Shown: piece after piece, positions 1 through 36,028 of the stretch
Numbering within the stretch: the first letter of the stretch is position 1
Layout of the letters: each line of letters opens with the position of its first letter
Assembly: GCA_017654855.1 (NCBI GenBank)
Contig: CM030336.1
Location: 1 to 64,000, forward strand
DNA length: 64,000 bases
Source of the DNA: Podospora anserina
Taxonomy: Eukaryota
Direction of reading: 5' to 3'
The notes under the pieces: generated by a model
Databases searched by the model: none
Told to the model about the DNA's origin: nothing
What the model saw: the letters and a program-made list of their open reading frames with translations, nothing else
Translations under genes and position numbers: made by a program

Positions 1-2340
1 TTTAACATAATCATAGCGGTTAGTCTTATCATATCATTATATATATACAGCCGTTGATATGCTTTTTTCTGTCGGTACTTTTTTTAATATATTTATAGCG
101 GTTAGTTTTAATATATTATTATATATATATAGCGGTTAGTATACTTTTTTCTGTCGGTACTTTTTTTAATATATTTATAGCGGTTAGTCTTAATATATTA
201 TTATATATATATAGCGGTTGGTATGCTTTTTTCTGTCGGTACTTTTTTTAATATATTTATAGCGGTTAGTTTTAACATAATATTATATATATATAGCGTT
301 TAGTATGCTTTTTGCTGTTAGCACTTTTTTTAATATATTTATAGCGCTTAGTCTTAATATATTATTATATATATATAGCAGTTATTATGCTTTTTATTAT
401 TAATAGTTCTTTTAATATATTTATAGCGGTTAGTCTTAATATATTATCATATATATATAGCGGTTAGCATGCTTTTTACTATAAATATAGCGTTTAGTAT
501 TTCTTATACTATATATCTAGCGCTTAGTTTTTATTTATTATATATATATATATTGCATTTAATATTTTTTTTCTTTATATATAGCGGTAAGTATTTCTTT
601 ATATATATATATATCGGTTAATATATCTTTAGATATATATATAGCAGTTGATTTTTATATACTTTTATATATATATATATATAGCGGTTTAATACTTTTT
701 TTACTATATAGATAGCGCTTAGTTTTAACGTATCTTTATATATATTTTTAGCGGTTAGCAATTTTTTCTATATATATATAGCGGTCAGCACTTCTTTCTA
801 TATATATATAGCGGTTAGTACTTCTTTCCATATATTTATAGCGGTTAATCTTAACGGATCTTTCTATATATTTATAATAATTAAAATTTCTTTTTATATA
901 TTTATAGCCGTTAGCATTTTCTTTATATATATATATAAGTTAATATTCCTTTCTATATTTATATAGCGGTTAACACTTTTTCCTTTTTATATATACGGAT
1001 TACTATTCCTTTCTATATTTCTATAGCGGTTAGTTTAACCTACCCTTATATATATATATCGCGGTTAACACTTTTTCTATATATATATACGGGTTACTAT
1101 TCCTTTCTATATTTCTATAGCGGTTAGTTTTAACCTACCCTTATATATATATCGCGGTTAATACTTTTTCTATATATATATACGGGTTACTATCCCTTTT
1201 ATATTTCTATAGCGGTTAGTTTTAACGTATCCTTATATATATATAGCGGTTGGCCCCTTTTTCCATATATATATACTAGTTTATATTCCTTTCTATATTT
1301 ATATAGCGGTTAATTTTAATTAATATATATATATATATATTTTTTACCCTTAATAGTCTTTTTATTTATATATAACAATTAATACTTTTTTTATTTATAT
1401 ATATACCGGTTAATATTCCTTACTATATATAAAGCGGTAAATCTTTATATATATTTATAGCGGTTAATACTATTTACTATATTTATATAGCGGTTAGTAT
1501 TTCTTTCTATATATTTATAGTAATAAGTTTTAATAGATCTTTATATATATATATAGCGGTTAGCGCTTCTTTCCACATATATATACGGGTTACTATTCCT
1601 TTTTATATTTATATAGCGGTTAGTTTTAACGTATTTTTATATATATATATAGCGGTTAGCACTTCTTTTCACATATATATACGGATTACTCTTCCTTTCT
1701 ATATTTTTATAGCGGTTAGTTTTAACGTATCTTTATCTATATATATCGCGGTTAATACTTTTTTCCATATATATATACGGGTTACTATTCCTTTTTATAT
1801 TTCTATAGCGGTTAGTTTTAACGTATCCTTATATATATATAGCGGTTAGTATTTCTTTCTATATATATATACGGGTTATTATTCCTTTCTATATTTATAT
1901 AGCGGTTAGCACTTCTTTCTATATATAAATACGGGTTACTATTCCCTTTTATATCTATATAGCGGTTAGTTTTAACGTATTTTTTTATATATATATATCG
2001 GTTAATACTTCTTTCCATATATATATACGGGTTACTATTCCTTCTTATATTTATATTACAATTAGTTTTAACGTATTCTTATATATATATAGCGGTTAAT
2101 ACTTTTTTTTATATATATATAGCGGTTAGTACTTTTATTACTATATATATAGCGGTTAATACTTTTCCTTACGTATATATAACGTTTAATACTTTTTTCT
2201 ATATATATATACCGGTTAATATTCCTTTCTATATTTATATAGCGGTTAGCACCTTATTTACTATATATATAGCGGTTAATACTTTTTTTTTACGTATATA
2301 TAGCGGGTTTAATACATTTATATTTATATATAGTTATTAG
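1..2340. repeat. RIP-degraded minisatellite built on a TATAGCGGTTAG core, with unit about 82 bp near the start and about 95 bp later
   Basis: GTCGGTACTT recurs at 71, 153 and 235 (82-bp step). ACGG(G/A)TTACT recurs at 1585, 1681 and 1777 (96-bp step). AGCGGTTA recurs every 30-40 bp. Extreme TpA enrichment. Confidence 0.8.
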
Positions 2341-3229
2341 CTTTTATATAGTTTTATATATACGTATAGTAATTCGTGTTCCCTCTTACTAATATATAGT
2401 AGTTAGTCTTTATATATCTTTATATATATATATAGCGGTTCGGGTATTTTCCTATTTATATATAATAATTATATATTCTTTAAATTTTTATATTATAATA
2501 TATAATTTTTTTTCGTTTATATATATTAAATATTAATATTTATATATATATATATATATCAATCTAACTTTATTTATTTAATTTACAAAGAATAATAAAT
2601 TTTATATTTTAAATTTATTTAATTAATAATTTTTTTTTACTATATATTATACCCTTATTTAATTACTTCTTTCTTTCTTTCTTTATTAATTATTTAATTT
2701 CTTTATACTATTTAAAAATATTAATAAAAAATCTTTTTATATTTATTAATTTCTTTTTAATTATAAAATATTATTATTTTTTTCGTAAAATAATATATTT
2801 AAAGTTTTATAAATATATTTATATAAAGTTCGGCTATATTTTTAAAAATATAAATAATAATATAAACTTTTTAAAGAATTCAGGGGTTTATAGGTTATAT
2901 ATATAAATAGTTTATTTTTAATATTTTATTTTAAATACAATATCGACTTTTCTTTTTTTATATTTTATATATTATACGTATATAGGCTATTCTAGCCCTC
3001 TAATCAGGCCGTTCCGGTACTTATTATATAACTTACGAGCCTATAATATCTTTTTTTTTTCCTACGTATAATATAACTTACTAGTAAACTCTTATTATAT
3101 ATATATCTTTATAATATTATAATTAATTTTATATATTCTTTTACTATCATAATATAATATTTTTCTTTATTTTTACTTTTATTTATAAAATATATATATA
3201 TATATATTTTTTTAAAAAAAAAAACCATA

Positions 3230-6200
3230 ATATTACTCTATTAACTTTAGATATCTCGTACGAATTTCTTCCCACACTTTAACCCAAACTAATACTATTA
3301 CAAAACACTTAATATCCAATACTTTTACCCGTACGAGTAACCGACGTATTACCCCTATCTTATTATTTAATATAACTCCGTATTTCTAATAAAGTACCTT
3401 AATATCCTTTTTAAACTAACCTAAACCCCTTTTTTTAGTTATAACTAACTTTATTATTAATTTTATCCCGTATAAATAATCCTTCCTAAATTTATAAAAT
3501 AAATCCTCGTTTTCCTTTAACGGTTCCTACTACCTATAAAACCTTTTTAAAACCCTATACTTATTATACCCCTAGAAACTTCCGTTTAGCTTTCGTACGG
3601 TACTTAAATTTAAACCTTTAACCCTTAAAAGCTAATCGCCTAACTCCACGCTTTTTTTTTAAACCCGTTTATCTTTAAATAAACCCTTTAATATATATAG
3701 CTTTTCTAATTTATTAAGAAGTTTAGTTAATTATAGAGTATTTCGTACGATACCGTAAAATCCGTAGGCCGTTAATTACTGAAATTCGTACCGTACGTAT
3801 TCCTCCCTAGATTCGGTATACTTTAAAAAGTAAATTATATAATTTACTTATAACTATAAAAATACTTTAATTATAACTTTTATATTTTATATAATATTTT
3901 TTTTCTTTTCCCGCTCTTTTATAATAACTTAATATTATTTTTCTTTATTAATAATTATATTAAAAACCTATTTATCTATACCCTCCGGGATTACTATATA
4001 ATAAGACCTATAAACCTCCTCTTCTATTCGGAATAACTCTATACGAACTATATTAGAAAACCGCTTTTTATATAACCTATATAACTCCTCGCCCTCTTTA
4101 TACCCAGCCTTATTTATCCGCCCGTCTATTACTTAGAAAAGAATAATCCTATAATATAAATTACTATCCCGTATAAAATACTTTATTTTTAATAACGCTA
4201 AATCTATAACTCCGGTAATTAATTTTCCGGCTATACGATTTTTTATAAAAAAAATTACCGATTCGGCCTTTACTTTATTTTTCCCGGCTCGTCCGCTTTC
4301 CTAAATAAAGTCCCTTAATATCCTTAGAAGCTCGGTATAAAAAATATATTATATATTTAAAATATCGATACTAGTATTTAAAGTAAACGTTACTATAATA
4401 GTATTACCGCTTTTAATTTACTTTCGTACGATTTTATTCTTTTAAATACTCTTTTCTATATTACTATAGTATACCGGACACTTAAGTAAATATAAAATAA
4501 TTTTAATAAAATCGATTAAAAAGGAATAAATAATAACCTTTATACGAGGATTACGGTTACTAATAAAATTAATTTATTAATAAAGGGCTTAAAAGACGGT
4601 TTTTTAATCCCTATATTTAATTATAGAGTATTTAATATTCGACCGGGATATAATAAACCGTACGATAACTACCTTTTACGAATTAAAATATAAACTTTTA
4701 TAAAACCCTAGTAAATTCCGAAGTAAGAGGGTAGTTATTAGGAAGAGTAATTATATTTCGATTAAAGCTATATATTAGTCGATTTATTAAAAGAGTAATC
4801 GAAATTTATATAACGAATCTAAAATAATATAATATTCGTTAAAAATAATCCGGTTAAATTATTATTATACGTTAAACTTATTAACGAAGGTTTTAAATAT
4901 TTTAGTATTAAAGGCCTCTAGGGTTATAAAAATAATTTAATTAATCGAAACCTCTTTAAAGCTTTAAATCGTATAACTAATCCCTAATTCTTTATAACGC
5001 CGGGCTATATCCTTTTATAATACTATAAAAAGAAAAATAATAATAATAACCCCGTCCTTTATATAATAAGTTAGGAGTAGGAAAATAATATTCTTTTTAC
5101 TATTTATCCCGGTAATATAAAGGATTAGGCTAAACCCTTATACGATAGAAATTAATATCTCGCGTTAATTACTTTTAAAATTAGTATTAAGGTTATTAAA
5201 TATTTAACGGAAATAGCCTTTAATATTAAGGTTAATTAAATACCGGAATCGTTCCTACCGTACGGTATAATATTAATTTTAAAAGAGGTTAGTTTTAATT
5301 TATTAGAAAATTAAAATATCGTCCGAGCCGAAAGTAAATAGTTAATACTATAATTAATTAAGCTTTATAAACTATTATTATCGTACGGTATACCTTAACC
5401 TTCCTTAATTAATATATTTAATATATACTATTTTAATAATCTTTTTTAAGTAACCGGTTTAGGCCGTAATAATAAGATTAAATCCTTTATTTTCGTTATT
5501 CTTATCGCAATTAAAATTAAATCCGTTATAATTATTAAACAATAATACTATTTTATTTTCTAATAAACTTTTTAAAATAAAATAAATAAAAAATTAGCGG
5601 GTAATACTTATAGTAATATAACGTTAAGGCCGAATATTAATTTTAGATCCGAAGTAGCGCTCTATATATAATATAAGGGCCCGGCTAACTTTATTAAACG
5701 ACTATTAATTTTCTAGATTACCGGAAAATATATTTTAACCGGTACCCCTAAACTTAATATTTTTAAATAACTATATAAATTTAAAATCTTAAAAGAATAG
5801 GGTAAGGGTAAAGACTCTATTAAATTAATATTATAAATTAAAGTAAAAGGGGTAAATAAATTAAAAATATTATATAATACTTATATTTAATTCCTTTAGG
5901 AAATAACGATAAATAACTTTTAATTATCCGGTATAGTTTAACCCTTTATTATATTATAGTACGATTACGATTATATTATATTAAATAAATATATTTTTAA
6001 GCCCTTTAACCGGTATATTATAAAACCTTATATTTAAAAGCTTTATTGTACGAAGCGGTAACCTTACTAATAAATAGATAGTAATAAAAAGGAAGGATCG
6101 GAGTTTATTTACCCGGTCTAGGTACGATTAAACTTCGGTCGTATAATAAATATAATTATCGCCCTATTCTTTTAATTAAAATTAAATAAAGGAAAGATTT

Positions 6201-8000
6201 TTGGTAATTCGTTATATAATTTAATTTTAAAACTACCGGAAATATATATTACTAAAATCGGAAAGAAAAGAATACCTAATTTTATTTTAATTTATATTAT
6301 CCTTTAAATTATTTTAAAGAATTTCCGGAATAAAAATACCCGATATTAATAAAAAAGTTAGGTCCTAAACTATATAATTAATTTTATTAATTAAAATATA
6401 TATTATTTTAGTTAGGGCGTTAATAATAATAAAAATATCCTAATATATAATAATAGTATCGTTAAACGTAAACCTATTTTCGGATATTATAAAGTTATTA
6501 ATAATTATACTATACGTACGAACCTTTAAAACTTAGTTTATTAGTATAGGGTAATTACTTTAATAAACTTTAATTATAAACTTCGAAACTTTAGAGCGAA
6601 CGATATTAAAAAAACTAAGTTTTTTACTTACTTCTTTTAGTTAAGTAAACTCGTAAAATAAATATTATATAATAAAGGCTTTACCGAGGGTAACGATAGT
6701 AAAGAAAAGTAATATAAAGTCGGACGGGGTATACTACTTTTTATTATTCTTTAGGGCTATAGTAGTTAGGGTAAAAAAGAAGGTACTTTCGTATAACGAT
6801 TATAGGAAAGAATAATTTAAAAGTTTAATAAAAAAATCGATAAATACTTAATTTAATAACTCTCCTCTAGCCTTATTATTACCGTAATAAAACTCCTATA
6901 TTACTTATATAATAATTTTTAAACTTTTTATTTAATTAGCGTTTAAATCGTACGGTAACCGATTTTATTAATCCTAACTTTATATATAGTAAATATATTT
7001 AAAAATCCTTTTTTAAATAAAAAAATATTTCTATATTATACGAAGGACTAAGTTATTATTATTAAAAGGCTTAAAGGGTTTTTAATTAATTATTTTTTTA
7101 TTAACTTTAAATAAAATTAGGTAACCGATTTTATCGGACGACGACCTTACTATTATATTGGTAGTAATTTAATTAATTTTTTTTTAAATTTTATAGAGAA
7201 CTATAAAGGTAATTAGATTTTTACCGTCTAACTATCCCTCGTTTAAGTTAAAAAAGATTAAACGATATACGGTTTACCGGTCTAAAAACCTAAAGTAATA
7301 TATTTAATTTATCTTATTTAATTAAAGATTTAAAATTAATTATTTTTTATTTACTATAATAATTATTAATATTTATTAAAAGGTTAAATTAATTATATAA
7401 TAAAATACTATAAACTATTTTTTTTATTTTTAAGTTTATTATACGAGGTTAAGATTTTTAATTACTAACTCTGTTAATCGTACTTTAAAATATTTAATAA
7501 TTAACCGGCTTTTAAAAAACCGTTAGTAATATATCCTAATTATTTAAAGTCCCTAATATTATTAGGCTACTTTAATATTTTCCCTTTTTATATTAAAATT
7601 AATTTAATCGTGCCTCGTACAATAGTATTCCTATATCGCTCTCTTAGTCCGTACGATATAAGTATAAGTATTATACTTTAATTTATTAAAAAAAGGTTTC
7701 CCTAGTTCTGGAATTAAGTTAATTATTATAAAAAGAAATATAAAGTTTATTAAATTTTATTATTTTCGAAAGACCGTTAATAAATTATTATACTTTTATA
7801 CGATATTTAGTTTATTTATAGCTATAATATTTTTATAGGACGTACGAAGATAGGTAAGTATTTTATTTATAAAAATAGTTACTTTATATTTCCTATAAAT
7901 AAAAATTTAAAAGCAGGAGATATAAATAAAAAGGTTTATTTTAGTATAGTATTAATAATAATATAATAGTTATATATAATACGAGATATTATTAAATTAA
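3230..8000 (-). pseudogene. RIP-inactivated RecQ-family (telomere-linked-helicase-like) gene with long N-terminal extension, copy A
   Basis: Minus-strand reading with C>T/G>A reverted gives: motif I (ITGINSKKNIIFLLL, ~5090-5120, from GTGSGKS); motif II (LNRIIFNEYY, ~4830-4858, from LDRIVFDECH); motif VI (*ESGRAGKNK, ~4280-4310, from QESGRAGRDG); and a Zn-domain relic near 4070-4160. The 5' boundary is approximate. Confidence 0.8.
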
Positions 8001-8069: not shown

Positions 8070-9240
8070 AAGGGTAGTGGCGTACGGTTACCGGGATCTG
8101 GGTCCCGTACGATAATCAGGGCGTGCCTAGGCAGGAAGGCAGTAAGGTGTAATTACTAGTCTTATACGATAGTCAGGGCGTGCCTGGGCAGGAAGGTAGT
8201 GGCGTGCGGTTGCCGGGGTCTAGGTCTGCAAAAGCAGATCTTTTCCTCCAAAGCAGGCCTTTTCTTTTAAATCCCTCGACAGGCCAGCTATGCAATAGAG
8301 CCTTATTATTCCGATCTAGGCGTCTGGGTCCCGTACGGTAGGTAAGGCTCGCCTGGGCACGAAGACAGTGGCGTACGGCTGCGAGGATCTAGGACCATTT
8401 CTTTTAACTACCTCGACTACCCAGCTGTGTAACAGAGCCTTGTTATTCCGATCCAGGCGTCTGGGTCCCGTACGGTAGGCAAGGCTCGCCTGGGCGCGAA
8501 GGCAGTGGCGTGCGGCTGCGAGGATCTGCGTCCCGTACGGTAGTTAGGGCTCGCCTGGGCACGAAGGCAGTGGCGTGCGGCTGCGAGGATCTGGGACCAT
8601 TTCTTCCAACTACCTCGATTGCCTAGCTGTGTAACAGAGCCTTGTTATTCCGATCCAGGCGTCTGGGTCCCGTACGGTAGGCAAGGCTCGCCTGGGCGCG
8701 AAGGCAGTGGCGTGCGGCTGCGAGGATCTGCGTCCCGTACGGTAGGTAAGGCTCGCCTGGGCGCGAAGGCAGTGGCGTGCGGCTGCGAGGATCTAGGACT
8801 ATTTTTTCTAACTACCTCGACTGCCTAGCTATATAATAAAGCTTTGTTATTCCGATTAAGGCGTCTGGGTGCCGTACGATGGTTAGGGTATGCCTGGGCA
8901 GGAAGGTAGTGGGGTGCGGTTACCGGATCTAGGTCTTTAAAAGCGGACCTTTTCTTTTAAATCCCTCGACAGGCTAGCTTTATAACAGAGCGTTATTATT
9001 CCGATTAAAGCGTCTAGGTGCTATACGATAGTTAAAGCATGCTTCGGCAGGAAGGTAGTAGCGTATAGTTATTAGTCCCGTACGATAGTTAGGGTATGCT
9101 TCGGTAAGAAGGTAGTGGCGTATGGTTGCCGGGGTCTAGGTCTGTAAAGTAGGCCTTTTCTTCTAAATCCCTCGATAGGCCAGCTATATAATATAGCCTT
9201 ATTATTCCGATTAAGCCGTTTAGGTGCCGTACGATAAGGT
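8070..9240. repeat. GC-rich composite tandem repeat (65-bp plus 137-bp modules, 202-bp period) inside element A
   Basis: GGAC(C/T)ATTT anchors at ~8394, 8596 and 8798. CCCGTACGGTAG and GAAGGCAGTGGCGTGCGGCTGCGAGGATCT modules repeat. Confidence 0.85.
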
Positions 9241-9379: not shown

Positions 9380-10100
9380 TATAATTTTTATACGGGGTTT
9401 ATAGATTTATTGTTTATTAGTATTGTCGTTTAAGAAGTAATATAAAGATTTTAAGGTATAATAATTAAGCGGTATATACGGTTTTAAAGTTTTTAAAGGT
9501 ATAGGTTTAATTCTAATTAAAGCCCTTTTTTAATAAACTTTTAATTATATAAATTAATTAACTTTTAAATAAATATTTAAAATAACTTTTATCCTTACTA
9601 CCCGTAGTTCGTATAAGATTATCGACATTAGCTAGCTTTATATTAAAAGCCTAATAAATAATTTCTATATTAATATTAATATATATTTTTCCCGTATAAT
9701 AATACTTAAACTAATAAATATATAGGAGATATAATAAGTAATTTCGGCTTTACTATCGGCCGATATCGAATACGTTCCCGGCAAAGTAAAGGGGACTAAA
9801 GTATTAACTTGTCCGAGCTACTTAAATATAGTTTTAATTTAAAACCGTAGTTTAGTAACTACCTTTCCCTATACTACTTATATTAATAAGCTTAATAGAG
9901 GGCCGTTTAAGGATTATTATACGATAAATAGGTATTAGGGTAATACTTATAGTAATTATAAGTAAAGGGATTACGGTAGTAAATATAGCTTCTATACCGC
10001 TAAATAAAGCGGTATTAAAGCCGAGGAAAAAAGCGAGGGAAATAAAGGAGCGGCGGAAAAGAGCTAGGAGCCTATAGTTATTAATAATTCCGATAATTAA
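9380..10100 (+). pseudogene. RIP-degraded second ORF of the helicase element, product unknown
   Basis: Conserved with ~32830-33536. Both copies end in EPIVINNSD(N/D)* (reverts to EPxVIDDSDD*). Start not resolved. Confidence 0.4.
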
Positions 10101-10139
10101 ATAAGTTATATAATAATAAAAATTAATTAATTTTATATT

Positions 10140-13100
10140 TTTTATTTATAATTCTATACCGCTCGTATAATAATATACTTTATATTATTTTATATAGCTC
10201 GTTTAAGCAATTCTAATAATATCTTTATTTTTTATATTAATAAAAAAAATCCTATCGGATCGTATAACTTACCTTTCTATTACCTAACCTTACTTTACTA
10301 TTTATATACATTACTAATATATTTATACCTAACTTTATATTTTTTACTTATAATTCTATACTATTCGTATAATAATATACTTTATACTATTCTATATAGC
10401 TCGTTTAGTTATTTCTAATAATATTTTTACTTTTTATTTTAATAGGAGAAATCCTATCGGATCGTATAACTTATTTTTCTATTACCTAACCTTACTTTAC
10501 TATCTATATATATTATTAATATATTTATACTTAACTTTATATTTATTATTTATAATTCTATACCGCTTATATAATAATATACCCTATACTATTCTATATA
10601 GCTCGTTTAGGTAATTCTAATAATATCTTTACTTTTTATATTAATAAGAAAAATCCTATCGGATCGTATAACTTACCCTTCTATTACCTAACTTCACTTT
10701 ACTATTTACGTATATTACTAATATACTTATACCTAACTTTATATTTTTTATTTATAATTCTATACCGCTCGTATAATAATATACTTTATACTATTCTATA
10801 TAACTCGTTTAATTATTTTTAATAGTATTTTTACTTTTTATTTTAATAAAAGAAATCCTATCGGATTATATAACTTACTTTTCTATTACTTAACCTCACT
10901 TTACTATCTACGTACATTACTAATATACTTATACCTAACTTTATATTTATTATTTATAATTCTATACCGCTCGTATAATAATATACCCTATACTATTCTA
11001 TATAGCTCGTTTAAGTAATTTTAATAGTATCTTTACTTTTTATATTAATAAGAGAAATTTTATCGGATCGTATAACTTACCTTTTTATTACCTAACCTTA
11101 CTTTACTATCTATATATATTACTAATATATTTATACCTAACTTTATATCTTTTACTTATAATTCTATATTATTCGTATAATAATATACCTTATACTATTT
11201 TATATAACTCGTTTAGTTATTTTTAATAGTATTTTTATTTTTTATTTTAATAGAAGAAATCTTATCGGATCATACAACTTACTTTTCTATTACCTAACCT
11301 CACTTTACTATTTACGTATATTACTAATATACTTATACCTAACTTTATATTTACTATTTATAATTCTATACCGCTCGTACAATAATATACCCTATACTAT
11401 TTTATATAGCTCGTTTAGGTAATTCTAATAATATCTTTACTTTTTATATTAATAAGAGAAATCCTATCGGATTATATAATTTACCTTTCTATTATCTAAC
11501 TTTACTTTACTATTTACGTACATTATTAATATATTTATACCTAACTTTATATCTTTTATTTATAATTCTATACCGCTCGTACAATAATATACCTTATACT
11601 ATTTTATATAATTCGTTTAATTATTTTTAATAATATCTTTACTTTTTATTTTAATAGGAGAAATCCTATCGGATCGTATAATTTATTTTTTTATTACCTA
11701 ACCTCACTTTACTATTTACGTACATTACTAATATATTTATACCTAACTTTATATCTATTATTTATAATTCTATACCGCTCGTATAATAATATACCCTATA
11801 CTATTCTATATAACTCATTTAGGTAATTCTAATAATATCTTTACTTTTTATATTAATAAAAAAAATCCTATCGGATCGTATAACTTATTTTTCTATTACC
11901 CAACTTTATTTTACTATTTACGTATATTACTAATATACTTATACCTAACTTTATATCTTTTACTTATAATTCTATACCGCTCGTATAATAATATACTTTA
12001 TACTATTCTATATAATTTATTTAATTATTTCTAATAATATTTTTATTTTTTATTTTAATAAAAAAAATCCTATCGGATCGTATAACTTACTTTTCTATTA
12101 CCTAACCTCACTTTACTATCTATATATATTATTAACACACTTATACCTAACTTTATATTTATTATTTATAATTCTATACCACTCGTATAATAATATACCC
12201 TATATTATTTTATACAGCTCGTTTAAGCAATTCTAATAGTATCTTTACTTTTTATATTAATGGGAGAAATCCTATTAGATTATACAATTTACCCTTCTAT
12301 TACCCAACCTTACTTTACTATCTATATATATTACTAACATACTTATACCTAACTTTATATCTTTTACTTATAATTCTATACCGCTCGTACAATAATATAC
12401 TTTATACTATTCTATATAGCTCGTTCAGTTATTTCTAATAGTATCTTTACTTTTTATTTTAATAGGAGAAATCCTATCGAATCGTATAACTTACTTTTCT
12501 ATTACCTAACCTTACTTTACTATTTACGTATATTACTAACACACTTATACCTAACTTTATATTTACTATTTATAATTCCACACCGCTCGTATAATAATAC
12601 ACCCTATACTATTCTATGCAACTCGTTTAAGCAATTCTAATAATATCTTTACTTTTTATATTAATAAGAGAAATCCTATCGGATCGTATAACTTACCCTT
12701 TTATTACCTAACCTTACTTTACTATTTACGTATATTACTAATATATTTATACCTAACTTCATATTTTTTACTTATAATTCTATACCGCTCGTATAATAAT
12801 GTACCTTATACTATTCTGTGTAGCTCGTTCAGGCAATTCTAATACTATCTTTATTTTTTATTTTAACGGGAGAAATCCTATCGGATTATATAACTTACCT
12901 TTCTATTACCTAACCTCACTTTACTATCCACGTACATTACTAATATACTTATACCCAACTTTATATCTTTTACTTACAATTCCACACCACTCGTACGATA
13001 ATACACCTTATACCATTCTATGCAGCTCGTCCAGGCGATTCTAATGCTATCTTTGCTTTTTATTTTGACGGGAGAAATCCCATCGGATCGTACAACTGAA
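10140..13100. repeat. Subterminal tandem array of about 14.5 x 202 bp with alternating A/B variants
   Basis: CCTATCGGATCGTA-type core at 10251, 10453, 10655 and onward to 12877 and 13079, in exact 202-bp steps. Confidence 0.92.
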
Positions 13101-15064
13101 TTCTTTAACGGATCCTACCCCCTATTTCTAAAGTGGGGCCTTTTTTTTGGTGCGCTTTTCAACGGATTGTACTACAATCCATCGGAGAATAACTGATAGG
13201 ACACCGTTCCGTAGTCTCTTTACGCTTTAGATCCTTCTTTAAGCCTTAATTAGCTTTCCGACCTTTCCTTCGATCCTAATATAGCCGGTCCTTCCTTCCT
13301 AAACCCATAAAGTACCGCCGATAGCATACCTTTTACTTCCTAAAATAATTAAAATATATAGTATTATTTATATATAAGTTTCTCTATATTTTCTAACTTT
13401 ATAGTATAGTATATAATACGTTAATTATTATATTAAAAGTATAAGTTTAATTCCTATTACGGTTCTCGAATTTCTATATTATTATTATTTAACGGTAATC
13501 TAAAGACTTATCTCTTTTATTTAGGTTTTAATCGGTTTAAATATTACCGGTTAAATTTTTTTTATTTATTTAAATAATTAAAATTTATTTTTAATTCCTA
13601 TAAATTATTTATAACCGGATATTTTAATTAATTAATTAAATACTTTAATTAACCTCTATTAAACCGTAAATCTAGTATTTTTTTTATATCGTACTTTTTT
13701 TTTTCGTCCTCCGCCATTACTTATATATTAATTTTACTTACCGGTAATACGGGTTTTAGAAATAAAATATAAAAAGTATATAACTATAAACGTATCGTAG
13801 TAAGTAACTCCAATTCGAATACCGTTTTTAAAATCTTTCTTTTAATTTTAAATAGACCCACTCTCCTATAATTTAGCTTTTTACTAAGTCTTTTAGTACA
13901 TAAATTACGTATAGAAAAGAATATTATATCCCCCCCCTTAAAGTAAAATCCTTTAAGCTTTTTAGTATTATAATATTTTTATATTTTTTTTTTTATAAAT
14001 TTTAATTTTTATTTAAATTTACTATAAAATATATATAATTTATTTACTTTAACCCTAGCCCTAAGTACTTTAACGCTAGGTCCTTACCGTAAGTTTACTT
14101 TATATTTAAAATTTACGAAGAACGGTATAACTTTAATTATTTAAGTTAATAATATATTATATACTAATTATATTATAAATAATAATTTAATTTAATTATT
14201 TTATTCGAAATTAATATAATTTCATAAATATTATTCTATAATTTAATTAAACCGTTCTATTTAATTATTCGTTTAAGGGTAATAAACCGAAAATACTTTA
14301 CTTACTACCTTTAACCTCGTTATTAACGCTCTTTAAAACTTCGATACGAATTTAATATTGCGGTCCGTAATAAACTCTTTTAACTATATATATATTAATA
14401 TAATATACTATAATACTATATCCGTTAATTACTTTACTAACTAAATTTTTTTATAAAGTAAAAAGTATATTTATTTAATAAATTTATTAATTACTATTAA
14501 TATATTATTATATTTAATACCGGTTACTATATTTTTAAATTTTAATAATTTAATAATAAAATTCGTTATAATTAAATTTTATAATCATTTTATTATTAAT
14601 AATAATTTTAAAAATCTATAAAGCTTATACTTTATAATCCTTGTTTTTTTATATATATAATATAATTATATAGCTTCCTTAATATCGTTTTTAATCTTTA
14701 ATTAATTAAAGTATTATTTAATTTTTTTTATAATCTTTATAATACTTATATATCCTCCGAACTTCGATCTATAAATTTTTATTATTAATATCGTTCTATT
14801 ACTTAGTATTACGTACGCTCGATTTTTATACTATAGTTTTCCTTAACTATTTTTTTACATACCTTATAGCTTTAGCTTTTCCTACTAATATTACTCCGTA
14901 ATATCGTTATTTAACTTCCTTTAATATTTACTGGAAGTAGCTTTTTTATAATATATTATATAATACTTTATTTATAACTATAGTAAATACTTAAAATACC
15001 GTTTAACGTCTCTTTAAGTAATAGTAGTAACTACTTAGGTATATCTTTATAATAGTCGGCCCGC

Positions 15065-15558
15065 TATAACGAACCCCTATATAGAACCTCTAAAAAGGAT
15101 ACTAGTTAAAGGTAATTTCTAATAATTGATTCGGTATAGCTAAATAGTATATAGTAAAATATTTTAATATAAATACTAATTACCGTAAATATAAGTTTAA
15201 ATTATATATTACGGAACTATTTATCTATACTAGCTAGTTCCTCCGTATATATAAACTTTAGAGCCGTAAGGTACTCGCCCTACTATAGGCCCGATTACTC
15301 CTAGTATATTATATCCTGTATTATGCTCGTCGTACTATACCTTTAATTACTCCTAGTATATTATATTTATATTATACTCGTCGTACTATACTTTTAATTA
15401 TCTCTAATATTTTATATCCTATAGATTACTCGTAAACTTTAGCGCTATAATACTTTTATTTAACCCTAATCGGCTTATTCCTTAACTTTTTAAATAATTA
15501 GTTAGGAGCGATTTACGCCCTATATATAGCGCGATTTACCGTTAAATTAACTATAATA
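15065..15558 (-). repeat. 3' LTR of element Y
   Basis: Direct repeat of 22053-22546. TG...CA ends converted by RIP to TA...TA. Confidence 0.88.
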
Positions 15559-18500
15559 TAATACCTCTTTTTTTAAGTTAACGCCCCAATAATTATATTC
15601 CTAAAATAATTATCGATTTCCCTTTCTTTTATATTTGTATTATAAATTCCTTTCCTTTTTTATTTTAATTATTATATTTAATTATATAAAGAAATCGATT
15701 CGTACGAATATCGATTATCGTTATAATTAAATATATTTTTTTAAAAAGTTTAGTTTTAGTATACTTAAATATATTTATTATAAAAAAAATAATTTTTAAT
15801 ATATAATTTCCTTTCAATACGACCGGTACTTCTTATATATTAATTCGAATCGTTTTTATTATAATATTTATAATATAAATCGTAAATTTCTTTTTTAACT
15901 TTCCCTTTTCTTTTTTAATTATTTTTATAATCCGTTTTTTAATTAAAAAGAAAAAATACTTAAATACCAAAAAATAAATTACTTTAAATAAACTTTTTTA
16001 TTTCGAAATATAATTATATATCTTTAAGGCTCGAGCCTTTACTACTTTCCGTCGCGAATCTCGGCTCTTTAAGGAAAAAGAGAGAGAGTCTTTCGCGCGG
16101 CCTACTACCCTACATAGCCCGCCGACGGCGGATATTTCCGTTACTCTTTCCGATCTTTCCTTTTTAAATCCTTCCTTAAGCTTCGACTAACCGCCTAACT
16201 TTTCTTTAAACCCGGGCGTAGCCGGTCTTTCCTTCCTAACCTCCCAAAATACCGCCGCTAATACGCCTTCTATTTCCTAAAATAATTAAAGCGCGTAATA
16301 CTATTTATATTTAATCCCCTTTATATTTTTTAATTTTATAGTATAATATATAGTACGTCGATTATTATATTAAAGGCGTAGGTTCGATTTTTATTAAAGT
16401 TCTTTAGTTTCTATATTATTATTATTTAATAGTAATTTAGGGACTTATTTCTTTTATTTAGGTTTTAATCGGTTTAAATATTATTAATAGAATTCTTTTT
16501 ATTTATTTAAGTAATTAAAGTATATTTATAGTTTTTATAAATTATTTATAACCGGATATTTTAATTAATTAATTAAATATTTTAATTAACTTTTATTAAA
16601 TTATAAATTTAATATTTTTTTTATATCGTACTTTTTTTTTTTTATTTTCCGCCATTACCTATATATTAACCTTACTTACCGGTAATATAAGTTTTAAAAG
16701 TAAAATATAAAAAGTATATAATCGTAAATATATTATATTAAATAACTTTAATTCGAATATCGTTTTTAAGATTTTCCTTTTAACTTTAAATAAACTTACT
16801 CTCCTATAGTCTAGCTTCTTACTAAGTCTTTTAATATATAAATTATATATAAAAAGAAATACTATATCCCTCCCTTTAAAGTAAAGTCCTTTAAGCTTTT
16901 TAATATTATAGTATTTTTATATTTTTTCCTTTATAAACTTTAATTTTTATTTAAATTTACCGTAAAATATATATAATTTATTTACTTTAACCTTAGCCCT
17001 AAATACTTTAACGTTAAGTCCTTACTATAGGTCTATTTTATATTTAAAATTTATAAAAAATAATATAACTTTAATTATTTTAATTAATAATATATTATAT
17101 ATTAATTATAATATAAATAATAATTTAATTTAATTATTTTACTCGAAATTAATATAATTCTATAAATATTATTTTATAATTTAATTAAACCGTTCCGTTT
17201 AACTATCCGTTTAAAGATAGTAAGCCGAAAACACTTTATTTATTATTTTTAGCCTTATTATTAACGTTTTTTAAAATTTCGATATAAATTTAATATCGCG
17301 GTTTATAATAAACTTTTTTAATTATATATATATTAATATAATATACTATAATACTATATCCGCTAATTACTTTATTAATTAAATCTCTTTATAAAATAAA
17401 AAATATATTTATTTAATAAGCTTATCGATTACCGTTAATATATTATTATATTTAATACCGATTATTATATTTTTAAACTTTAGTAATTTAATAATAAAGT
17501 TTATTATAACTAAATTCTATACTAAGTTTTACTATTAATAATAGTTTTAAAAATCTATAAAGCTTATACCTCGTAACCTTTATTTTTTTATACGTATAAT
17601 ATAATTAAATAATTTCCTTAATATCGTTTTTAATTTTTAATTAATTAAAGTATTACTTAATTTTTTTTCTAGTCTTTACAATACCTATATATCCTCCGAA
17701 CTTCGATCTGTAAATCTCTATTATTAATATTATTTTATTATTTAATATTATATACATTTAATTTTTATATTATAGTTTTCTTTAATTATTTTTTTAAATA
17801 CTTTATAGCTTTAGCTTTTCTTACTAATATTACTCTATAATATTATTACTTAACTTCTTTTAATATTTATTAAAAATAATTTTTTTATAATATATTACGT
17901 AATACTTTATTTACAACTATAATAAATATTTAAAAATACCGTTTAACGTCTCCTTAAATAATAATAATAATTCCTTAGGTATATCCTTATAGTAATCGGC
18001 TCGCCGGCTAAATACGTTTACTTTAATATTTTCCGAACCCTTTTTATAATTAATTTAAAAATTAAATTCTAAAAAGTTTTTTAATTATTATATTTATTAT
18101 ATATTAAGGACCTTCGTAATAATAAAGTATTATAAATTTTTATAATCTATATAAACCTATATTTTATATTTAATATTATTAAAATATAACTTTTATTCCT
18201 TAAATATTTTAATAATAATAAGTAGCTTCTTATTATAAATTAAATAATTTTAACGTACCCCTTCGAGCTTTTTCGAAAAGAAGGTTACCGGGTATAGCTT
18301 ATCGTCGTTATTTTACTACCTTAATTATTTACTAATCGTATAGTTTAATATATTTACTTCGACTTTAAATAATTAATTAAGGTTTAATAATTTAAATACC
18401 GGGTCCTTTAAAATAACTTTTTTTAACTCCTAAAAAGTTTATTCCTTTTCTTACTCCTACCGGAATTCTACGTTCTTTTTAATTAAATAATTAAATAATT

Positions 18501-21500
18501 ATATAATATTTACGTATTTATAAATAAATATTTAATAAAAATTTATAAACCTTAAAAATCTTTTAATATATATTTATAATTATAATATAAATTAATCTTT
18601 AATTACTATAATTTTTTTAAATTCTATAAGAACTTTATTTAATAATATTAAATATTTTAAATATATTATTTTTTATATATAAAACTCGCTTTTCTCTTTA
18701 TTAATTAAGAGTCCGGCTCCGTATAGCGCGTCGAATATCTTTCGTATATATCGCTTATACTCCTTTAAAGTACGTAAATAAATAAAAACGTTATCGAGAT
18801 AGTATATTATTATTTTATCGAGGTACTTCCGGATCGTATAATTAATAAAAAATTAAAATATTATAAGTATATTAATTAGCTTAAATAATATTATAAAATA
18901 TTTAAAATAATTATAAAATATACGAATCGCTATTTTTTATTTATTTATTTTTTTTAATCTATATATAAGCGTATCCGATAAATATATTTAAACGTATAAA
19001 GTATTATACCCCTACTAATTAACTCCGTAACTTAAATATTAATAGTAGCGAATAATTATTTTTTACCGTCTCGTTATTTAATTAACGGTAGTTTATATAT
19101 AATCGTAAATTACTATTTTTTTTCGGTATAAAAAATATAGAGTATCCTATTAGCGATATAAATTTTTTAATATATTTCTTTTTTAAATTTTTATTTAAAT
19201 ACTTCCGTAATTCTTTATTTTATTTATCGTTAGTATAATAAACTTTAAATAACCGTAATTTAATTCCTTTTTTTAATTTAATTTTATAGTCCCACGGTCC
19301 TTACTTTAAAAATCCTTTTAAATATTTAACTATAAAAGTTAAGTATCCTCGATATTCTATTAGTACCGTTTTTTTCTCGTTTTTTTCTATATAATTATAA
19401 TAAATATATTTATTAACCTCCGATATCTTTACTAACGTTATTAACCCTATTTCTTCGATCTTACCGTTTATATCGATAGAGTATATTATTACTTTTTAAG
19501 TTCCTTACGGTAATACCGTAGAGGGTATTTATCCTATACTTTACTCTATATATACGCCTAATCTCCTATTATTAATTAAATACTTTTAAAGTTCTTTTAA
19601 TCGTAAGTAATTACTATCCCTTTAATCGATATTTAGGTTATAATTTTTATATTATAATTGCCCTAGGATTATATCCTTCGAGGGTCTTATATTTATAATA
19701 TCGAATATAATTAAAATTATTTTTTTTTAATTATAATATCTAAAAATAATATTTTTTTATAAACCTTTTAAGTCGGAAATAATCCTTATATAATAATTTA
19801 TTCCTTTTTTTTCTTCTATAGTATTTTAGTTTAATATATAAATTATAACGAAATTAAATTCGTTTTTATATTTCCGTTTACTAATATTATTACTTAAATA
19901 TCTTTTTAATATATTATAATTTAAAAATATTTATTTTTCTTACTTCTTCCCTATATAGTAGTAACTTCGCTAACGAGTACCGGATTATTATCCTATATTT
20001 TTACTTTATACCGATACTTCTAAAAATACCGTTCGTAATCCGTTAAAAATTACCGGCCCCCGTAAAAGGCCGTAAATTATTTTTTAAATAATTATATTAT
20101 TTTAAAACGTCCTTTTACTCCGAGTTATTTAATAATATAAAGTTTTTTAATTATATTTACTTAACTTCCTCCTATTTTCTATTTTTTATATACCTAATAT
20201 TTTTTTATATATATATCCGATAACGGTTTTTTTATTTAATTATTTATTTAAATATTTTTATTTAATAATATTATTTATCCTTCTTTTATAAATATAATAC
20301 GTAATTTAGGTTTAAATATTAATTTAATATTATTTTTTCCTAAAAATATATATTATTATTTATATCCTAACCGTTCGCGTATTCGATATAGTATTTTATA
20401 TACTTTAATATAAATAATTAATAATTATATAATAATTTACTTTAATAGTATTTTATAAATCTGTATATAATATACTAAAACTAAAATACTTTCCGATACT
20501 CCGGATATTTAAAATAAAGTTATATCGTATCTCCTTTATAAAGTATATACTATATAAATATAAATATATTTTTTAATAATTTCGCGATCCCGATACTAAC
20601 GACTTTTTTACTTTTCTAATATTTTTCCCGACTTTTATATATAAACTTTATAAATAATAATATTTTTTATAAAATAATAATTTTATATTTACTATATTAC
20701 TTTTTTAATATCGTTTACTTAATAAATCCTTTTTACTATATAACATTATTATCCTTAACGACCTCCGTAATAATTTTTATAATAATTTATATTAATCGAT
20801 TTTAAAATATTAATATTTAAAGGTCTCCTTCTTTATACTCTACTTTTAGCCTTTCTATTATTTCCCGTAACCTTTAGAACTTTACTTCCTTTTATTTAAC
20901 ATATTAATTAAAGTTTTTTTTAAAGCTTATTACTTTATTTTATTAATATCTAATAATTATAACCTTTATAATCCTCGGTCCCCTTAATATAATAATTATT
21001 ATAGTAACTTCCTTTTTCTATTTAAATTATTTAAATACCTAATAATCCTTTTTAAAATATCTTACCTTACTATAATTAAAATACTTATAATTATTTTTAT
21101 TTTAGCCTTAGCTTTACGGCCTTTATTATTATATAACGTCGATATTTATAAATCCTAAATATATAATACTAAAGTAATTAATAATTAAATATTACCGTTT
21201 ACGTTTATTATTAAAATAGTAATTTCCGTAATAACCCTGATTATTATAATTTTTTTTTTCCGTATAACGTTAAAATTATTTATTATCGATCCGTATAATT
21301 ATAACAATATATTTATCAATAGTATTAAACCTCTCTTCCTTATATAACTTATTTTTTATTTTTTCTTTAAAATTATTATAAAAAATTTATATTAATTCTT
21401 TATTATTAATTTCGTTATATAAATTATCGATTTTAAATTAAATAATATATTCTATTATTAAACGTATTTATTATAGATTTACGAGCCTCTCCTACGCGTA

Positions 21501-22052
21501 TTTACCCTTATTATATTTCCTAAATACTTCCTTAAACTTTACCTCGAAAGCTCGGTAACTCCGAAAATATTAAATAGTAATTTCTTTTTAATTTTCCGCT
21601 ATTATTTTATAATAATTATTAAAAATAAATTCGAATTAAATAAAAGTTTTATTTTTAAGCCGGGTAATTATATATATTACTTTCGACTCTTCCGTATTAA
21701 ACTATTCCGGGTAATAACGAAAATAAATTTTAAATTAAATTAAAAAACTTTTAAACTTTACCTTTCCGCCTTTATAGTACTTTAGTGCCGGGAACTTAGT
21801 TACGTATATAAGCCTAACCGCCGAGAGAGTAAGAACCTACTCCTTAGTCTATTAGGCTTCGGCCTTAAGCTCTTTAATATAATTAATAAGCTATTAAACT
21901 ATAATAACTTTAGACTTAGCGTTTACCGTAAAAGGTCCTTCGATAGTTAGGCTAAGCGAGACGCTTCCTATCTAAACGTTTTTAGGTTAAGCTATAGTAA
22001 TAAAAAAACGTTTTTAATTTATTTATAATGGAATTAAAGTAAATATATAACG

Positions 22053-22546
22053 TATAATAAACCTTTATATAAAACCTTTAAAAGGGATACTAGTTAAAAG
22101 TAATTTTTAATAATTAATTCGGTATAGCTAAATAGTATATAATAAAATATTTTAATATAAATATTAATTACTGTAAATATAAGTTTAAATTATATACTAC
22201 GGAACTATTTATTTATACTAACTAGTTCCTTTATATATATCGACTTTAGAGCCGTAAGGTGCTCGCCCTACTATAGGCCCGATTACTTCTAGTATATTAC
22301 ATCTTACATTATGCTCGTCGTACTATACCTCTAATCACTCCTAGCACATTATATTTGTATTATGCTCGTCGTGCTATGCCTCTGATTATCCCTAGTATCT
22401 TACATCCTACAGACTGCTCGTGAGCCTTGGCGCTATAGCACTTTTGCCTAGCCCTGATCGGCTTATTCCTTAACTTCCTAAATGATTAGCTAGGGGCGAC
22501 CTGCGCCCCACATGTGGCGCGACCTGCCGTTGGGTTAACTGTGATA
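22053..22546 (-). repeat. 5' LTR of element Y
   Basis: Direct repeat of 15065-15558, followed by TSD CCCGC. Confidence 0.88.
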
Positions 22547-25500
22547 CCCGCTAGCTAAATACGTTTACCCTAACGTTCTCCGAAACTTTTTTATAATTAA
22601 TTTAAAAATTAAATTCTGAAAGAAACTTTAATTATTATATTTACCGTATATTAAGGACCTTCGTAATAGTAAAGTACTATAGATTTTTATAATTTATATA
22701 GATTTATATTTCGTATTTAATACTATTAAAATATAGCCTCTATTCCTCGAACGCTTCGATAATAATAAGTAGCTCTTTATTGTAGATTAGGTAATTTTAA
22801 CGTACCCCTTCGAGCTTCTTTAAAAAGAAAGGTACCGGGTATAGTTTACCGTTATCGTTTCGCTATCCTAATTATTTATTAATTATATAATTTAATATAT
22901 CCGCCTCGACTTTAAATAGTCGATTAGGGTCTAGTAATTTAAATATTAAGTCCTTTAAAATAGCTTCTTTTAACTCTTAAAAGGCCTATTCCTTTTCCTG
23001 CCCCTACCGGAACTCTACGTCCTTTTTAGTTAAGTAGTTAAATAGCCGCGTAATACCTATATACCCTCGAATAAATATCCGGTAAAAGTTTATAAGTTTT
23101 AAAAATTCTTTAATATATATTTATAATTACGGCGTAGGCTAGTCTTTAATTACTATAATTTTTTTAAGTTCTATATAAACCTCTTTTAATAATATTAAAT
23201 ATCTTAAATATATTATTTTCTATACATAAAACTCGTTCTTTTTTTTATTAATTAAAAGTCCGGTTTTATATAGCGCGTCGAATATCTTTCGTACGTATCG
23301 CTTATATTCCTTTAAAGTATATAAATAAATAAAAATATTATTAAAATAATATATTATTATTTTATTAAAATATTTCTAAATTATATAATGAACGAAAGAT
23401 TAAAACGTTGCGAATATATTAATTAACCTAAATAGTATTATAAAATATTCTAAATAACTATAAAGTATATAAAATATTATTTTTTATTTATCCCCTTCTT
23501 TAATCTATATATAGGCGTACCCGATAAGTATATTTAAATATATAAAGTATCGTACCCTTATTAATTAACTCCGTAATTTAAATATTAATAGTAATAAATA
23601 ATTATTTTTTACCATTTCGTTATTTAATTAATAATAGTCTATATATAATCGTAAATTATTATCCTTTTTTAGTATAAAGAATATAGGGTATCCTATTAAC
23701 GATATAGATTCCTTAATATATTCTTTTTTTAAATTTTTATTTAAATATTTCTATAGTTCTTTACTTTACTTATTATTAATATAATAAACTTTAAATAACC
23801 GTAATTTAGTTCTTTCTTTTAATTTAATTTTATAGTCTTACAGTTTTCGCTTTAAAAGTCCCTCTAAATATTTAGCCGTAAAGGTTAAGTACTCTCGATA
23901 TTTTACCGGTACCGTTTTTTTCTTACCCTTTTCTATATTATTATAGTAAGTATATTTATTAATCTTTAATATCTTTACTAACGTCGTTAACCTTATTTCT
24001 TCGATCTTACCGCTTATATTAATAAAATATACTATTATTTTTTAAACTCCTTACGGTAATACCGTAAAGGATATTTATTTTATACTTTACTTTATATATA
24101 CGCTTAATTTCCTATCGTTAATTAAATACTTTAAAAGTTCTTTTAATTATAAATAGTTACTATCCTTTTAATTAATATTTAAATTATAGTTTTTATATTA
24201 TAATTACTTTAAAATTATATTTTTCAAGGGTCTTATATTTATAATATTAAATATAATTAAAATTATTTTCCTTTCGACTATAATATTTAAAAGTATTATT
24301 TTTTTATAAACCTTTTACGTTAAAAATAGTCCTTATATAATAATTTATTCCTTTTTTTTCTTTTATAGTATTTTAACCTAATATATAAAGTATAGTAAAA
24401 TTAGATTCGTTTTTATACCTCCGTTTACTAATATTACCGCTTAAATATCTTTTTAATATACTATAACCTAAAGGCATTTATTTTTTTTACTTTTTCCCTA
24501 TATAGTAACGACCTCGTTATCGAATACCGGATTGTTATCCTATACCTTTATTTTATATTAATATTTACGAAAATACTATTCGTAGTCCGTTAAAGGTTAT
24601 CGGTTCCCGTAAAAAACTATAAATTATTTTTTAAATAATTATATCGTTTAAAAGTATCTTCCTACTCCGGGTTATTTAATAATATAAAGTTTTTTAACTA
24701 TACCCGTTTAGTTTCTTTTTATTTTCCGTCTTTTACGTACTTAATATTTTTATATATATATATTTAATAATAATTCTTTACTTTACTTTATTAATACTTA
24801 ATAATTATAATTTTTATAATTTTCGGTTCCTTTAATATAGTAATTACTATAATCTTTTTTTTCTATCCGAATCGCTTAAATATTTTACAATCCTTCTTAA
24901 AATATTCTACCTTACTATAATTAAAATACTTAAAATTATCTCTATTTTAACTTTACAGCTTTTATTATTAAATAATATTAACTTTTATAGGCTTTATATA
25001 TATAGTTCCCGAAACGTAAGTCCCGTATAGCTGTCTTTTCCTTTTATTATTAAAGTAATAAGGTTTTTATATATATATACCTTTACGCTTTTTACGGTAT
25101 TAATATTATTAATCGTTAATATAAATTATTATTATAATATATTTATCGATAATCTCCGGTCGCTCTATTTAATATAGTTTATTTTTAACTTCTTCTTTAA
25201 GCTTATTATAAAATAACTATATTAACCCTTTATTATTAATTATACTATAAACTATATTTATTTTAAATACTATAACGTAATCGGTAATAAATCGAGTTTA
25301 TTTAAAGTTAGTTAATTACTTTTAAGTACGCTTACCCTCGTCGTACTTTCTAAATACCTTTTTAATCTTCTCTTTAAAGCCTTTATACGACTTAAAATAT
25401 TTCTTTATAATATCCTCTTTCTCGTTATACTTATTATTAAAGTAATCTCCTAAAATCGGCTCGAACTAAATAAATATTTTATCCTTAAGCCTAAACGCGG

Positions 25501-25858
25501 CGTATACTACTTTAGATTTTTCGTTTAGGAAACGAAAAAGGTAATACCGAAAGTAAGTTTTAAATTAAATTAGGAACCCTTTTAGCTTTCCCTTTACGCC
25601 TCTATAGTAATCGGGTACCTCGAGCTTAGTACGCTTTCCCTCCTTACGTAAAGTACTAATCTCTTAATAAAGTATAACGTTTTTTTACGTAAATATATTG
25701 TAGGAAAGGCGTAATTTATCTTTAAGCTTTAAAATACGAGCGAAAAGTTAATTAATAATAGGTTAAGTCGAAATTCTTTAAATATTAACGTTTCTAGCTA
25801 TAGCGTTATTTTAATACCTTTAATTTATCTATAATAAAGTTAAAGTAAATATATAACG

Positions 25859-35940: not shown

Positions 35941-36028
35941 GATCCTACCCCCTGTTTCTAAAGTGGGGCGTTTTTTTTGGTGCGTTTCTTAACGGATTGT
36001 ACTACAATCCATCGAAGAATAACTGATA

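Follow-up and report, generated by a model that had tools for sequence, protein, structure and literature searches.

A precise, palindrome-bearing terminus joined to AGG suggests that telomere-linked helicase units of Podospora anserina are one-ended mobile elements

Most chromosome ends of Podospora anserina carry a telomere-linked helicase (TLH) unit that stops on its centromere side at one exact base and is joined there, through a short core that is usually AGG, to unrelated targets whose distal parts are gone. We consider it likely that this unit is a one-ended, recombinase-driven element that replaces chromosome ends and works like the telomeric transposons of bacteria. Beyond this, we lean toward the view that TLH units form an unrecognized class of eukaryotic DNA transposon, a "mobile telomere," in which a fusion of recombinase and RecQ helicase would join a single hairpin-marked terminus, conserved with Magnaporthe, to an AGG near the chromosome tip, replace the tip, delete the genes beyond it, and could also heal the loss of a telomere.

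We scanned an assembly of 9 contigs and 36 Mb with TTAGGG telomeres and mapped the modules of the unit at both ends of contigs C1 to C8 (20 to 62 kb each), at the start of C9, and at two internal sites. The window, i.e., the whole 64,000-nucleotide stretch analyzed, lies at the very start of the 4.93-Mb contig C6; its first 37 kb are AT-rich repeats carrying the RIP mutation pattern, which marks it as an ascomycete chromosome end. Two units, A and B, were delimited with their targets as listed below, where a slash marks the position of a join.

1 to 3224, plus strand: distal satellite and spacer reaching the chromosome end; at other ends, the telomere repeat is attached just beyond the place of position 1
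3225 to 7940, minus strand: RIP-killed telomere-linked helicase gene of unit A (about 1,570 codons, 119 stops, start approximate), pointing to the telomere, in the order OrsD/zinc finger, recombinase, RecQ
4260 to 5190, minus strand: RecQ-type DEAD and Helicase_C region (Helicase_C with an E value of 1e-6 in the least mutated copy; both domains present in intact relatives)
5335 to 7207, minus strand: predicted tyrosine-recombinase region, with the R, K, R, H, and Y codons near 6052, 5947, 5623, 5452, and 5425 (placed by motif, approximate)
8250 to 9240, plus strand: GC-rich 202/137/65-bp tandem array, upstream of the helicase gene
9600 to 10110, plus strand: tentative second gene wreck, divergent from the helicase gene (frame visible, limits approximate)
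10128 to 13097, plus strand: AT-rich 202-bp tandem array of 14.7 copies, whose units repeat AACGGAT/ATCGGA words (here the slash separates two words) that are also found in the terminus
13098 to 13200, plus strand: inner terminus of unit A, which belongs to subtype A and has CCTATCAGTTATT as its first bases when the gene strand is read; 29 copies in the genome, with conservation ending after GG
13164 to 13180, no strand: subterminal palindrome of unit A, 8+1+8 bp
13198 to 13200, plus strand: AGG core common to the element end and the target, with the join inside the core; uninterrupted retrotransposon copies read CCA/GG or TTA/GG
13199 to 15064, minus strand: target of unit A, part of a gypsy-type retrotransposon (its 3' region), with the continuation at 22554 to 26061; the left part and second LTR are absent
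26062 to 26254, plus strand: LTR-like repeat bounding unit B on the telomere side; elsewhere it has TGT...ACA-type ends and occurs without the unit
26255 to 36028, plus strand: older unit B, subtype B, with its gene at 26742 to 31413 (minus strand); bounded on the telomere side by an LTR and not by a terminus
35930 to 36030, plus strand: inner terminus of unit B, with its palindrome at 35994 to 36010; the junction reads CG where target copies have GG
36029 to 36498, plus strand: target of unit B, a pogo/Fot1-type element without its first approximately 418 bp; a whole copy lies at 57677 to 59543

The two targets are unrelated. Unit A runs into an LTR retrotransposon at a point just behind the retrotransposon's Tf2-type SH3 domain and chromodomain-like end (PF24626, E value of 2e-6, a match below the curated cut-off), while the pogo target of unit B is a 1.87-kb TIR element whose less mutated relatives carry HTH_psq and DDE_1. 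The initial annotation, which had unit A run into the 3' region of a gypsy element and unit B into the middle of a pogo transposase, was correct on both counts, the second join lying 418 bp from the end of the pogo element.

The inner terminus is defined by a palindrome and by an edge. The palindrome, GGATTGTA-C-TACAATCC, lies at 13164 to 13180 and 35994 to 36010, i.e., 18 bp before 13198 and 36028, as first annotated; these are its only two sites in the window even when two mismatches are allowed, against 0.01 expected. The termini of units A and B are 92% identical, and the likeness first noticed over some 95 terminal bp in fact extends across the whole unit of approximately 10 kb, at 77 to 83%. 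With the terminal ~100 bp (a 103-bp query) we found 29 places in the genome, all 29 candidates being scored, and all 29 termini stop at the same base and then run into differing DNA; neither ragged ends nor shared flanks, either of which would have spoken for segmental duplication, appeared among them. The edge is thus as exact as had been proposed, but it lies two bases beyond the ACTGATA at which homology was first said to stop, the conserved end being ...ACTGATAGG. The last three positions of ...ACTGATA are conserved in at least 28 of the 29 termini; GG follows in 24 (G at +1 in 24, at +2 in 27, and at +3 in 16), and from +4 onward no base occurs in more than 14. The same edge was seen in raw reads of another sample, where 665 reads have loose ends behind the GG and depth drops approximately 40-fold, so that it is not an assembly artefact. 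In that sample, depth over the terminus is about 40 times that of unique flank, which is above the 29 assembly copies, and the sample may hold more copies.

The terminus also stands out by its composition, as RIP is much lighter there (13098 to 13200) and in the GC-rich array (8100 to 9240) than in the neighboring gene and AT array; the CpA index is 0.89 for the terminus, compared with 0.05 to 0.21 for the gene and AT array beside it. Its tendency to fold into a hairpin is modest, with a z score of about -2 for the last 51 nucleotides and 8 to 14 of 200 shuffles equally good. In the palindrome of unit A, the stem can reach 11 bp on the minus strand if G-T pairs are included and folds 7 bp on the plus strand, and a diverged copy at C6:3551281 keeps the palindrome with a different center (z of -3.9). 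A metagenome scan with the palindrome gave four matches that had nothing else in common with the unit, and one with the TLH protein alignment confirmed 0 of 586 stretches.

What the termini are joined to was read from uninterrupted copies of each flank. After setting aside 7 of the 29 junctions without a second copy, 3 with self-matches only (C4R 6255 and the two interstitial relics described below), and one of two that share a single site, 18 independent junctions could be evaluated. Uninterrupted target copies have GG at +1/+2 in 15 of these 18, usually as AGG, and in the other three all target copies are purine-purine, as RIP of GG would give. At other positions of the same alignments, the same rule holds for 6% (P = 3e-16, or 2e-12 at the highest control rate of 11%). 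The majority base at -1 is A in 17 of the 18 junctions; however, less mutated copies have G at this position for three targets, and because G may be converted to A by RIP, the first base of AGG is less certain than the other two. As judged from these alignments, the core is R-GG, usually AGG; the target has it, and the element ends with the same three bases. At the two focal junctions, two of three gypsy copies have GG (the copies reading CCA/GG or TTA/GG), as do 7 of 12 uninterrupted pogo copies (ATA/GG or TTA/GG), the CG at the junction of unit B itself being the exception. Two junctions are odd, one reading ATA/TGATAG and the other GATT/AGG, and the C4R junction shares 8 bp.

These junctions bear directly on the usual published explanation for the spread of TLH units, which is homologous recombination (invoked in the accessible text of PMC5576322, 10.1101/2022.03.07.483234, and 10.1101/721753). 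Ordinary subtelomeric exchange, or segmental duplication of one ancestral end, would make the inner boundary an old rearrangement breakpoint, and the distal 3 kb, which are 95 to 97% identical among most ends, are what such exchange produces, showing that it acts there too. However, a crossover needs sequence shared on its centromere side, whereas the flanks here are unrelated and have only AGG in common, and it could not join a terminus into the middle of the unit's own gene at several AGG sites. Homologous recombination is thus refuted for the junctions and remains true for the distal 3 kb; as the origin of the boundary, we give it a very slim chance.

The position of the units is as regular as their edge. 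Twelve of the 16 examined ends of C1 to C8 carry the unit and a 13th has terminus remnants, the order from the end being satellite, outward-pointing helicase gene, GC-rich array, spacer, AT-rich 202-bp array, and terminus; the right contig end of C3 starts inside the helicase gene. All but two of the 29 termini lie within 43 kb of a contig end, and 26 of these 27 face the centromere (P = 4e-7). From there the unit spans 10 to 13 kb to the telomere, and each target has lost its distal half. A search of the window for the lost parts of both focal targets (418 bp from the left of the pogo element, and the gypsy end) found neither of them beside the units, which means that the targets are truncated and that there is no target duplication to find. 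At the outer side, telomere and satellite are joined at one shared point in three ends, whatever their inner target, and at nearly the same point in a fourth; two further ends have the telomere at points of truncation. The initial annotation proposed looking to the left of the window for the rest of the gypsy element, the other end, and any target-site duplication; the window starts at the contig end, the rest of the gypsy element is not there, and the far boundary of the unit is the telomere.

Single-endedness is also apparent from the inner copies. All of them are incomplete toward the telomere, where they are bounded either by another terminus, belonging to a copy farther out, or by an LTR element. 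Five joins of one unit into another were recorded, located in the gene, GC array, or spacer, and each receiving copy lacks its distal part. The genome has no helicase gene copy away from chromosome ends, and there was no second terminus or target-site duplication and no target that resumes on the far side. Mobility as originally proposed is therefore supported in so far as the end is precise and the target core short, but not as ordinary two-ended insertion, since targets are truncated rather than interrupted. The empty site that was to be looked for did not turn up: for the one locus searched, the unique junction on C3, 4 runs from a list of 24 were used; the junction lies within all three contig sets and is covered by raw reads, and it is thus fixed in those samples.

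Could the unit nevertheless be a two-ended tyrosine-recombinase transposon of the Crypton or Starship kind that prefers subtelomeres and has lost its second end and distal flank by terminal truncation? Such truncation is common in fungi (according to the available part of PMC1635262), the predicted recombinase fold described below would suit it, and interstitial and inverted terminus relics do exist. It should, however, have left inner copies with a second defined end, and every one is bounded by another terminus or an LTR element instead; likewise, the lack of resumed targets and of interstitial gene copies, the single orientation in 26 of 27 cases, and a telomere junction that is identical in three ends and nearly so in a fourth all argue against it. 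We regard this explanation as largely refuted and highly unlikely.

One-ended replacement of chromosome ends, the reading we prefer, does not predict everything either, as two interstitial relics on C6 and an inverted copy at C3:5188994 would need later rearrangement. A reciprocal crossover product was looked for in vain among the copies, and the dead local genes, the failure to find an empty site, the two odd junctions, the position of the join outside the palindrome, and the mostly replaced first His of H-x-x-R (see below) also speak against it. The relics, at C6:3193757-3193857 and C6:3551281-3551357, are diverged termini without a helicase gene, and both end in A/GGG. The former sits between host genes and contains the word GTTCAACGGAATCTAC three times, while the latter is the copy that retains a strong palindrome (z of -3.9); they are possibly marks of old chromosome ends. 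The terminus at C3:5188994-5189094, the sole subterminal one that faces the telomere, is a 220-bp fragment behind an LTR in a transposon cluster. At the right end of C4, the telomere sits directly on a truncated LTR retrotransposon and only B-type terminus remnants remain, which indicates that this end broke and was then healed without a unit.

The copies further record when and how often joining took place. The termini comprise 15 of subtype A, 12 of subtype B, and the two diverged relics, and subtype A is distal to subtype B on all eight ends that have both. Newer copies truncate older ones, and there were two waves. Nine colinear full A genes differ from each other, per pair over 4,676 bp, by 0 to 3 transversions and by 531 to 736 transitions, yet have different junctions, a pattern that points to one burst followed by separate RIP mutation. 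Near-identical copies arrived at many ends, with a distinct junction at each, and mutated separately afterwards. One AGG in the gene, at positions 7380 to 7382 of the window, was hit in two copies, of which the one on C3 is A-type and the one on C1 is B-like. Since these two lineages differ by 11 transversions, the first of them 122 bp from the join, this AGG was probably used twice.

We then turned to the protein that may be responsible. Read through with X, the gene forms one 1,558-codon frame, but all 10 full-length local TLH genes are dead, with 87 to 130 stops each, and the genome holds no intact copy. Pfam found nothing in 15 read-through frames of the window's own copies, and only the two least mutated copies match Helicase_C. 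Intact relatives were more informative: there were 327 matches, the closest with E values down to 2e-129 and with PF12013, PF00270, PF00271, and a conserved middle domain. The 18 that we scanned consist of OrsD, an unannotated middle part, DEAD, and Helicase_C, the helicase being of the SF2/RecQ type; none of these 18 matched the DUF3435 or DUF3504 profiles (at E values up to 1), HUH Rep or Pif1 domains, or the DDE transposase TnsB, TnsC, and bacterial telomere proteins. Across 69 aligned sequences, R383, K418, and Y567 are present in all 69, H558 in 68, and R512 in 67, while the first His of H-x-x-R is present in 3 and mostly replaced by Ala or Ser. In the local genes, the codon corresponding to H encodes Y in unit A and H in the C3 copy.

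A structure was modeled from an intact relative (residues 1 to 600, pLDDT of 90) and not from the dead local gene. Foldseek matched this model weakly to XerH and Cre (best E value of 0.026). In structural alignments, the top 24 entries were recombinases with Z scores of 9.2 to 12.4, the next unrelated entry scoring 4.7, and among 48,161 chains searched the top 28 were tyrosine recombinases, topoisomerase IB, or their kin. The best match was XerA (Z of 12.4, rmsd of 3.5, 175 residues aligned), and protelomerases scored below simple recombinases (TelK, 5.0; TelA, 4.8). The ends of the aligned ranges place H558/Y567 on Cre 315/324, XerH 335/344, and IntI 293/302, which we take to be the catalytic residues of these enzymes. 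The middle domain of TLH proteins is thus predicted, in the intact relatives, to fold as a tyrosine recombinase with a conserved R-K-R-H-Y set.

Such a protein would most likely move the unit as follows. The TLH protein, with its zinc fingers, tyrosine recombinase, and RecQ helicase, would bind the terminus, where the palindrome may serve as a mark, cut within the terminal AGG, and connect the cut end with another AGG, or at minimum an R-GG, close to a chromosome end. Completion could then follow either by helicase-assisted copying of the approximately 13 kb to the donor telomere or by a completed chromatid crossover, and the target chromosome would lose everything distal and gain the element with its telomere. 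Survival would be limited to joins that lie close to an end and face the telomere, and the rules of orientation and position would follow from this. In classic recombinase sites the cut point is not outside the palindrome, unlike the join observed here, which lies 18 to 20 bp outside.

Alternatively, the joins may be the work of host repair, with a free linear copy or a fragile palindrome site providing the fixed end, microhomology joining or break-induced replication attaching it at AGG, and TLH being a passenger or only the maker of the end. Sharing of 2 to 3 bp is typical of microhomology repair, and the core is of this length, with 8 bp shared at the C4R junction. In addition, the core, CCT(A), is telomere-like, the units of Fusarium oxysporum have telomeric repeats on both sides (10.1101/2024.02.27.582403, accessible text), and TLH genes are induced in telomere crisis (as summarized in PMC1635262, available part). 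Random breaks annealing to a 13-kb template should, however, enter it raggedly and not at one base in 29 copies; the join lies 18 to 20 bp from the palindrome; and the catalytic residues are conserved in 67 to 69 of 69 relatives, which implies a function that is needed. Moreover, a free fixed end would itself require a site-specific cutter. We judge host repair to be unlikely.

The unit belongs to the known TLH subtelomere units. It has a RecQ-type helicase gene beside the telomere, at many ends and in the same orientation; an N-terminal C2H2/OrsD region, a conserved TLH domain, and RecQ motifs (in the closest intact relatives); and helicase-associated tandem repeats with a discrete inner boundary (compare the accessible part of PMC1635262). 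Similar units are described, in the available text of the respective reports, as TLH region I in Magnaporthe oryzae (PMC1635262), TLHcr in F. oxysporum (10.1101/2024.02.27.582403), DHX_G198 in Colletotrichum higginsianum (PMC5576322), and BcTLH in Botrytis (10.1101/2022.03.07.483234). Like the P. anserina unit, these are telomere adjacent and fixed in orientation, with the gene toward the telomere, flanking tandem arrays, OrsD/DUF3505 plus DEAD and Helicase_C, and a sharp inner boundary. The accessible portions of these reports describe no recombinase, target core, or self-mobilization and give the TLH domain no function, whereas the P. anserina unit has in addition a target core, nesting with distal target loss, and a burst. 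The present analysis tested the target core, the orientation and nesting of units across the genome, and the burst. For F. oxysporum, units are reported to form arrays and to be flanked on each side by telomeric repeats, and their function is left open; the word "recombinase" is absent from the available text (10.1101/2024.02.27.582403). The accessible parts of PMC4522978, PMC8381367, and 10.1101/2025.11.13.688278 added nothing on TLH mobility, and our search, in which subscription journals and Repbase were poorly covered, found no paper on a recombinase in TLH proteins or on movement by a single end in fungi.

The boundary in M. oryzae deserves a closer comparison. There, the TLH ends begin to differ at either the first C or the second C of CCTAACCAGTAATA, and a 23-bp palindrome lies in the next repeat (PMC1635262, accessible part); the boundary starts with CCTA and has a palindrome 17 bp inside. 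The P. anserina unit, read on the corresponding strand with respect to the gene, starts with CCTATCAGTTATT. The chance of such a match is 0.2 to 0.8% (37 of 19,984 host positions and 205 of 26,368 unit positions), and the likeness is suggestive only.

In its mode of working, the unit comes closest to the one-ended telomeric transposons of bacteria (PAST, Streptomyces Tn7-like elements, and TnsBC and I-E CAST), for which the telomere is the second boundary and movement is by DDE enzymes (10.1101/2024.11.13.623437, available text). Both have one specific end and a fixed orientation, and both replace native telomeres. The bacterial elements, as described there, use DDE proteins (TnsB/C), bridge two ends, and carry their own telomere proteins, whereas the P. 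anserina unit has a candidate tyrosine recombinase-RecQ fusion and telomerase-type TTAGGG ends. By analogy, the unit would work like these transposons but is not a member of them. With Xer/Cre-type enzymes, IntI, and the Tn1549 integrase, the TLH model has the fold (Z of 8 to 12) and R-K-R-H-Y in common; it differs from these enzymes in its fusion to zinc fingers and a helicase, in the first His of H-x-x-R, which is mostly absent, and in a join outside the palindrome. Two models for the mechanism come from this group: IntI acts on a hairpin site by a single exchange that is resolved by replication, and enzymes of the Tn916 family use short homology. Cryptons and Starships are fungal mobile DNA with a tyrosine recombinase, a short target motif, and two ends, and they do not delete the flank; the unit lacks two defined ends with target on both sides as well as the DUF3504/DUF3435 profile. 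Helitrons resemble the unit in having a subterminal hairpin near a precise end (18 bp from it in the unit), no target duplication, and a helicase, but the unit has no HUH Rep or Pif1, it carries the hairpin end on the upstream side of its gene, it lacks a second end, and its targets are truncated.

TLH genes have been known since 1998 to 2002 without a function. If TLH units mobilize themselves, there would be one answer for the job of the TLH domain, for the sharp inner boundary, and for differences between strains of one species that range from nearly all ends to none. The units would then be a DNA-based eukaryotic counterpart of both bacterial telomeric transposons and the telomeric retroelements of Drosophila, and they would directly cause genes to be lost from the chromosome ends of fungi. 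As substrate (the 100-bp terminus), target (AGG), and predicted catalytic tyrosine are all specified, a cleavage assay would be straightforward.

Several further features of the window and of related loci were recorded. The small gene wreck at 9600 to 10110 is present in all full units; its Cys pattern is presumably of the DUF3716 type, and Pfam gave no match in six frames from two copies. The repeat at 26062 to 26254 was considered as the left end of unit B and ruled out, being LTR-like and occurring without the unit. Between 13199 and 26061, two related gypsy-type retrotransposons are present, one (15065 to 22553) nested in the other. Within a few bases of the same spot of the terminus (just before CCCTG), the same solo LTR of approximately 230 bp occurs in opposite orientations at C4:4121321-4121630 and C6:3551281-3551357. 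Later LTR insertions in unit B lie at 31411 to 31779 and 34376 to 35010; the first of these, within the unit B gene, and a repeat at 36496 to 36862 that ends the pogo fragment are 369-bp LTR-like repeats, 95% identical, of a family that recurs at many chromosome ends.
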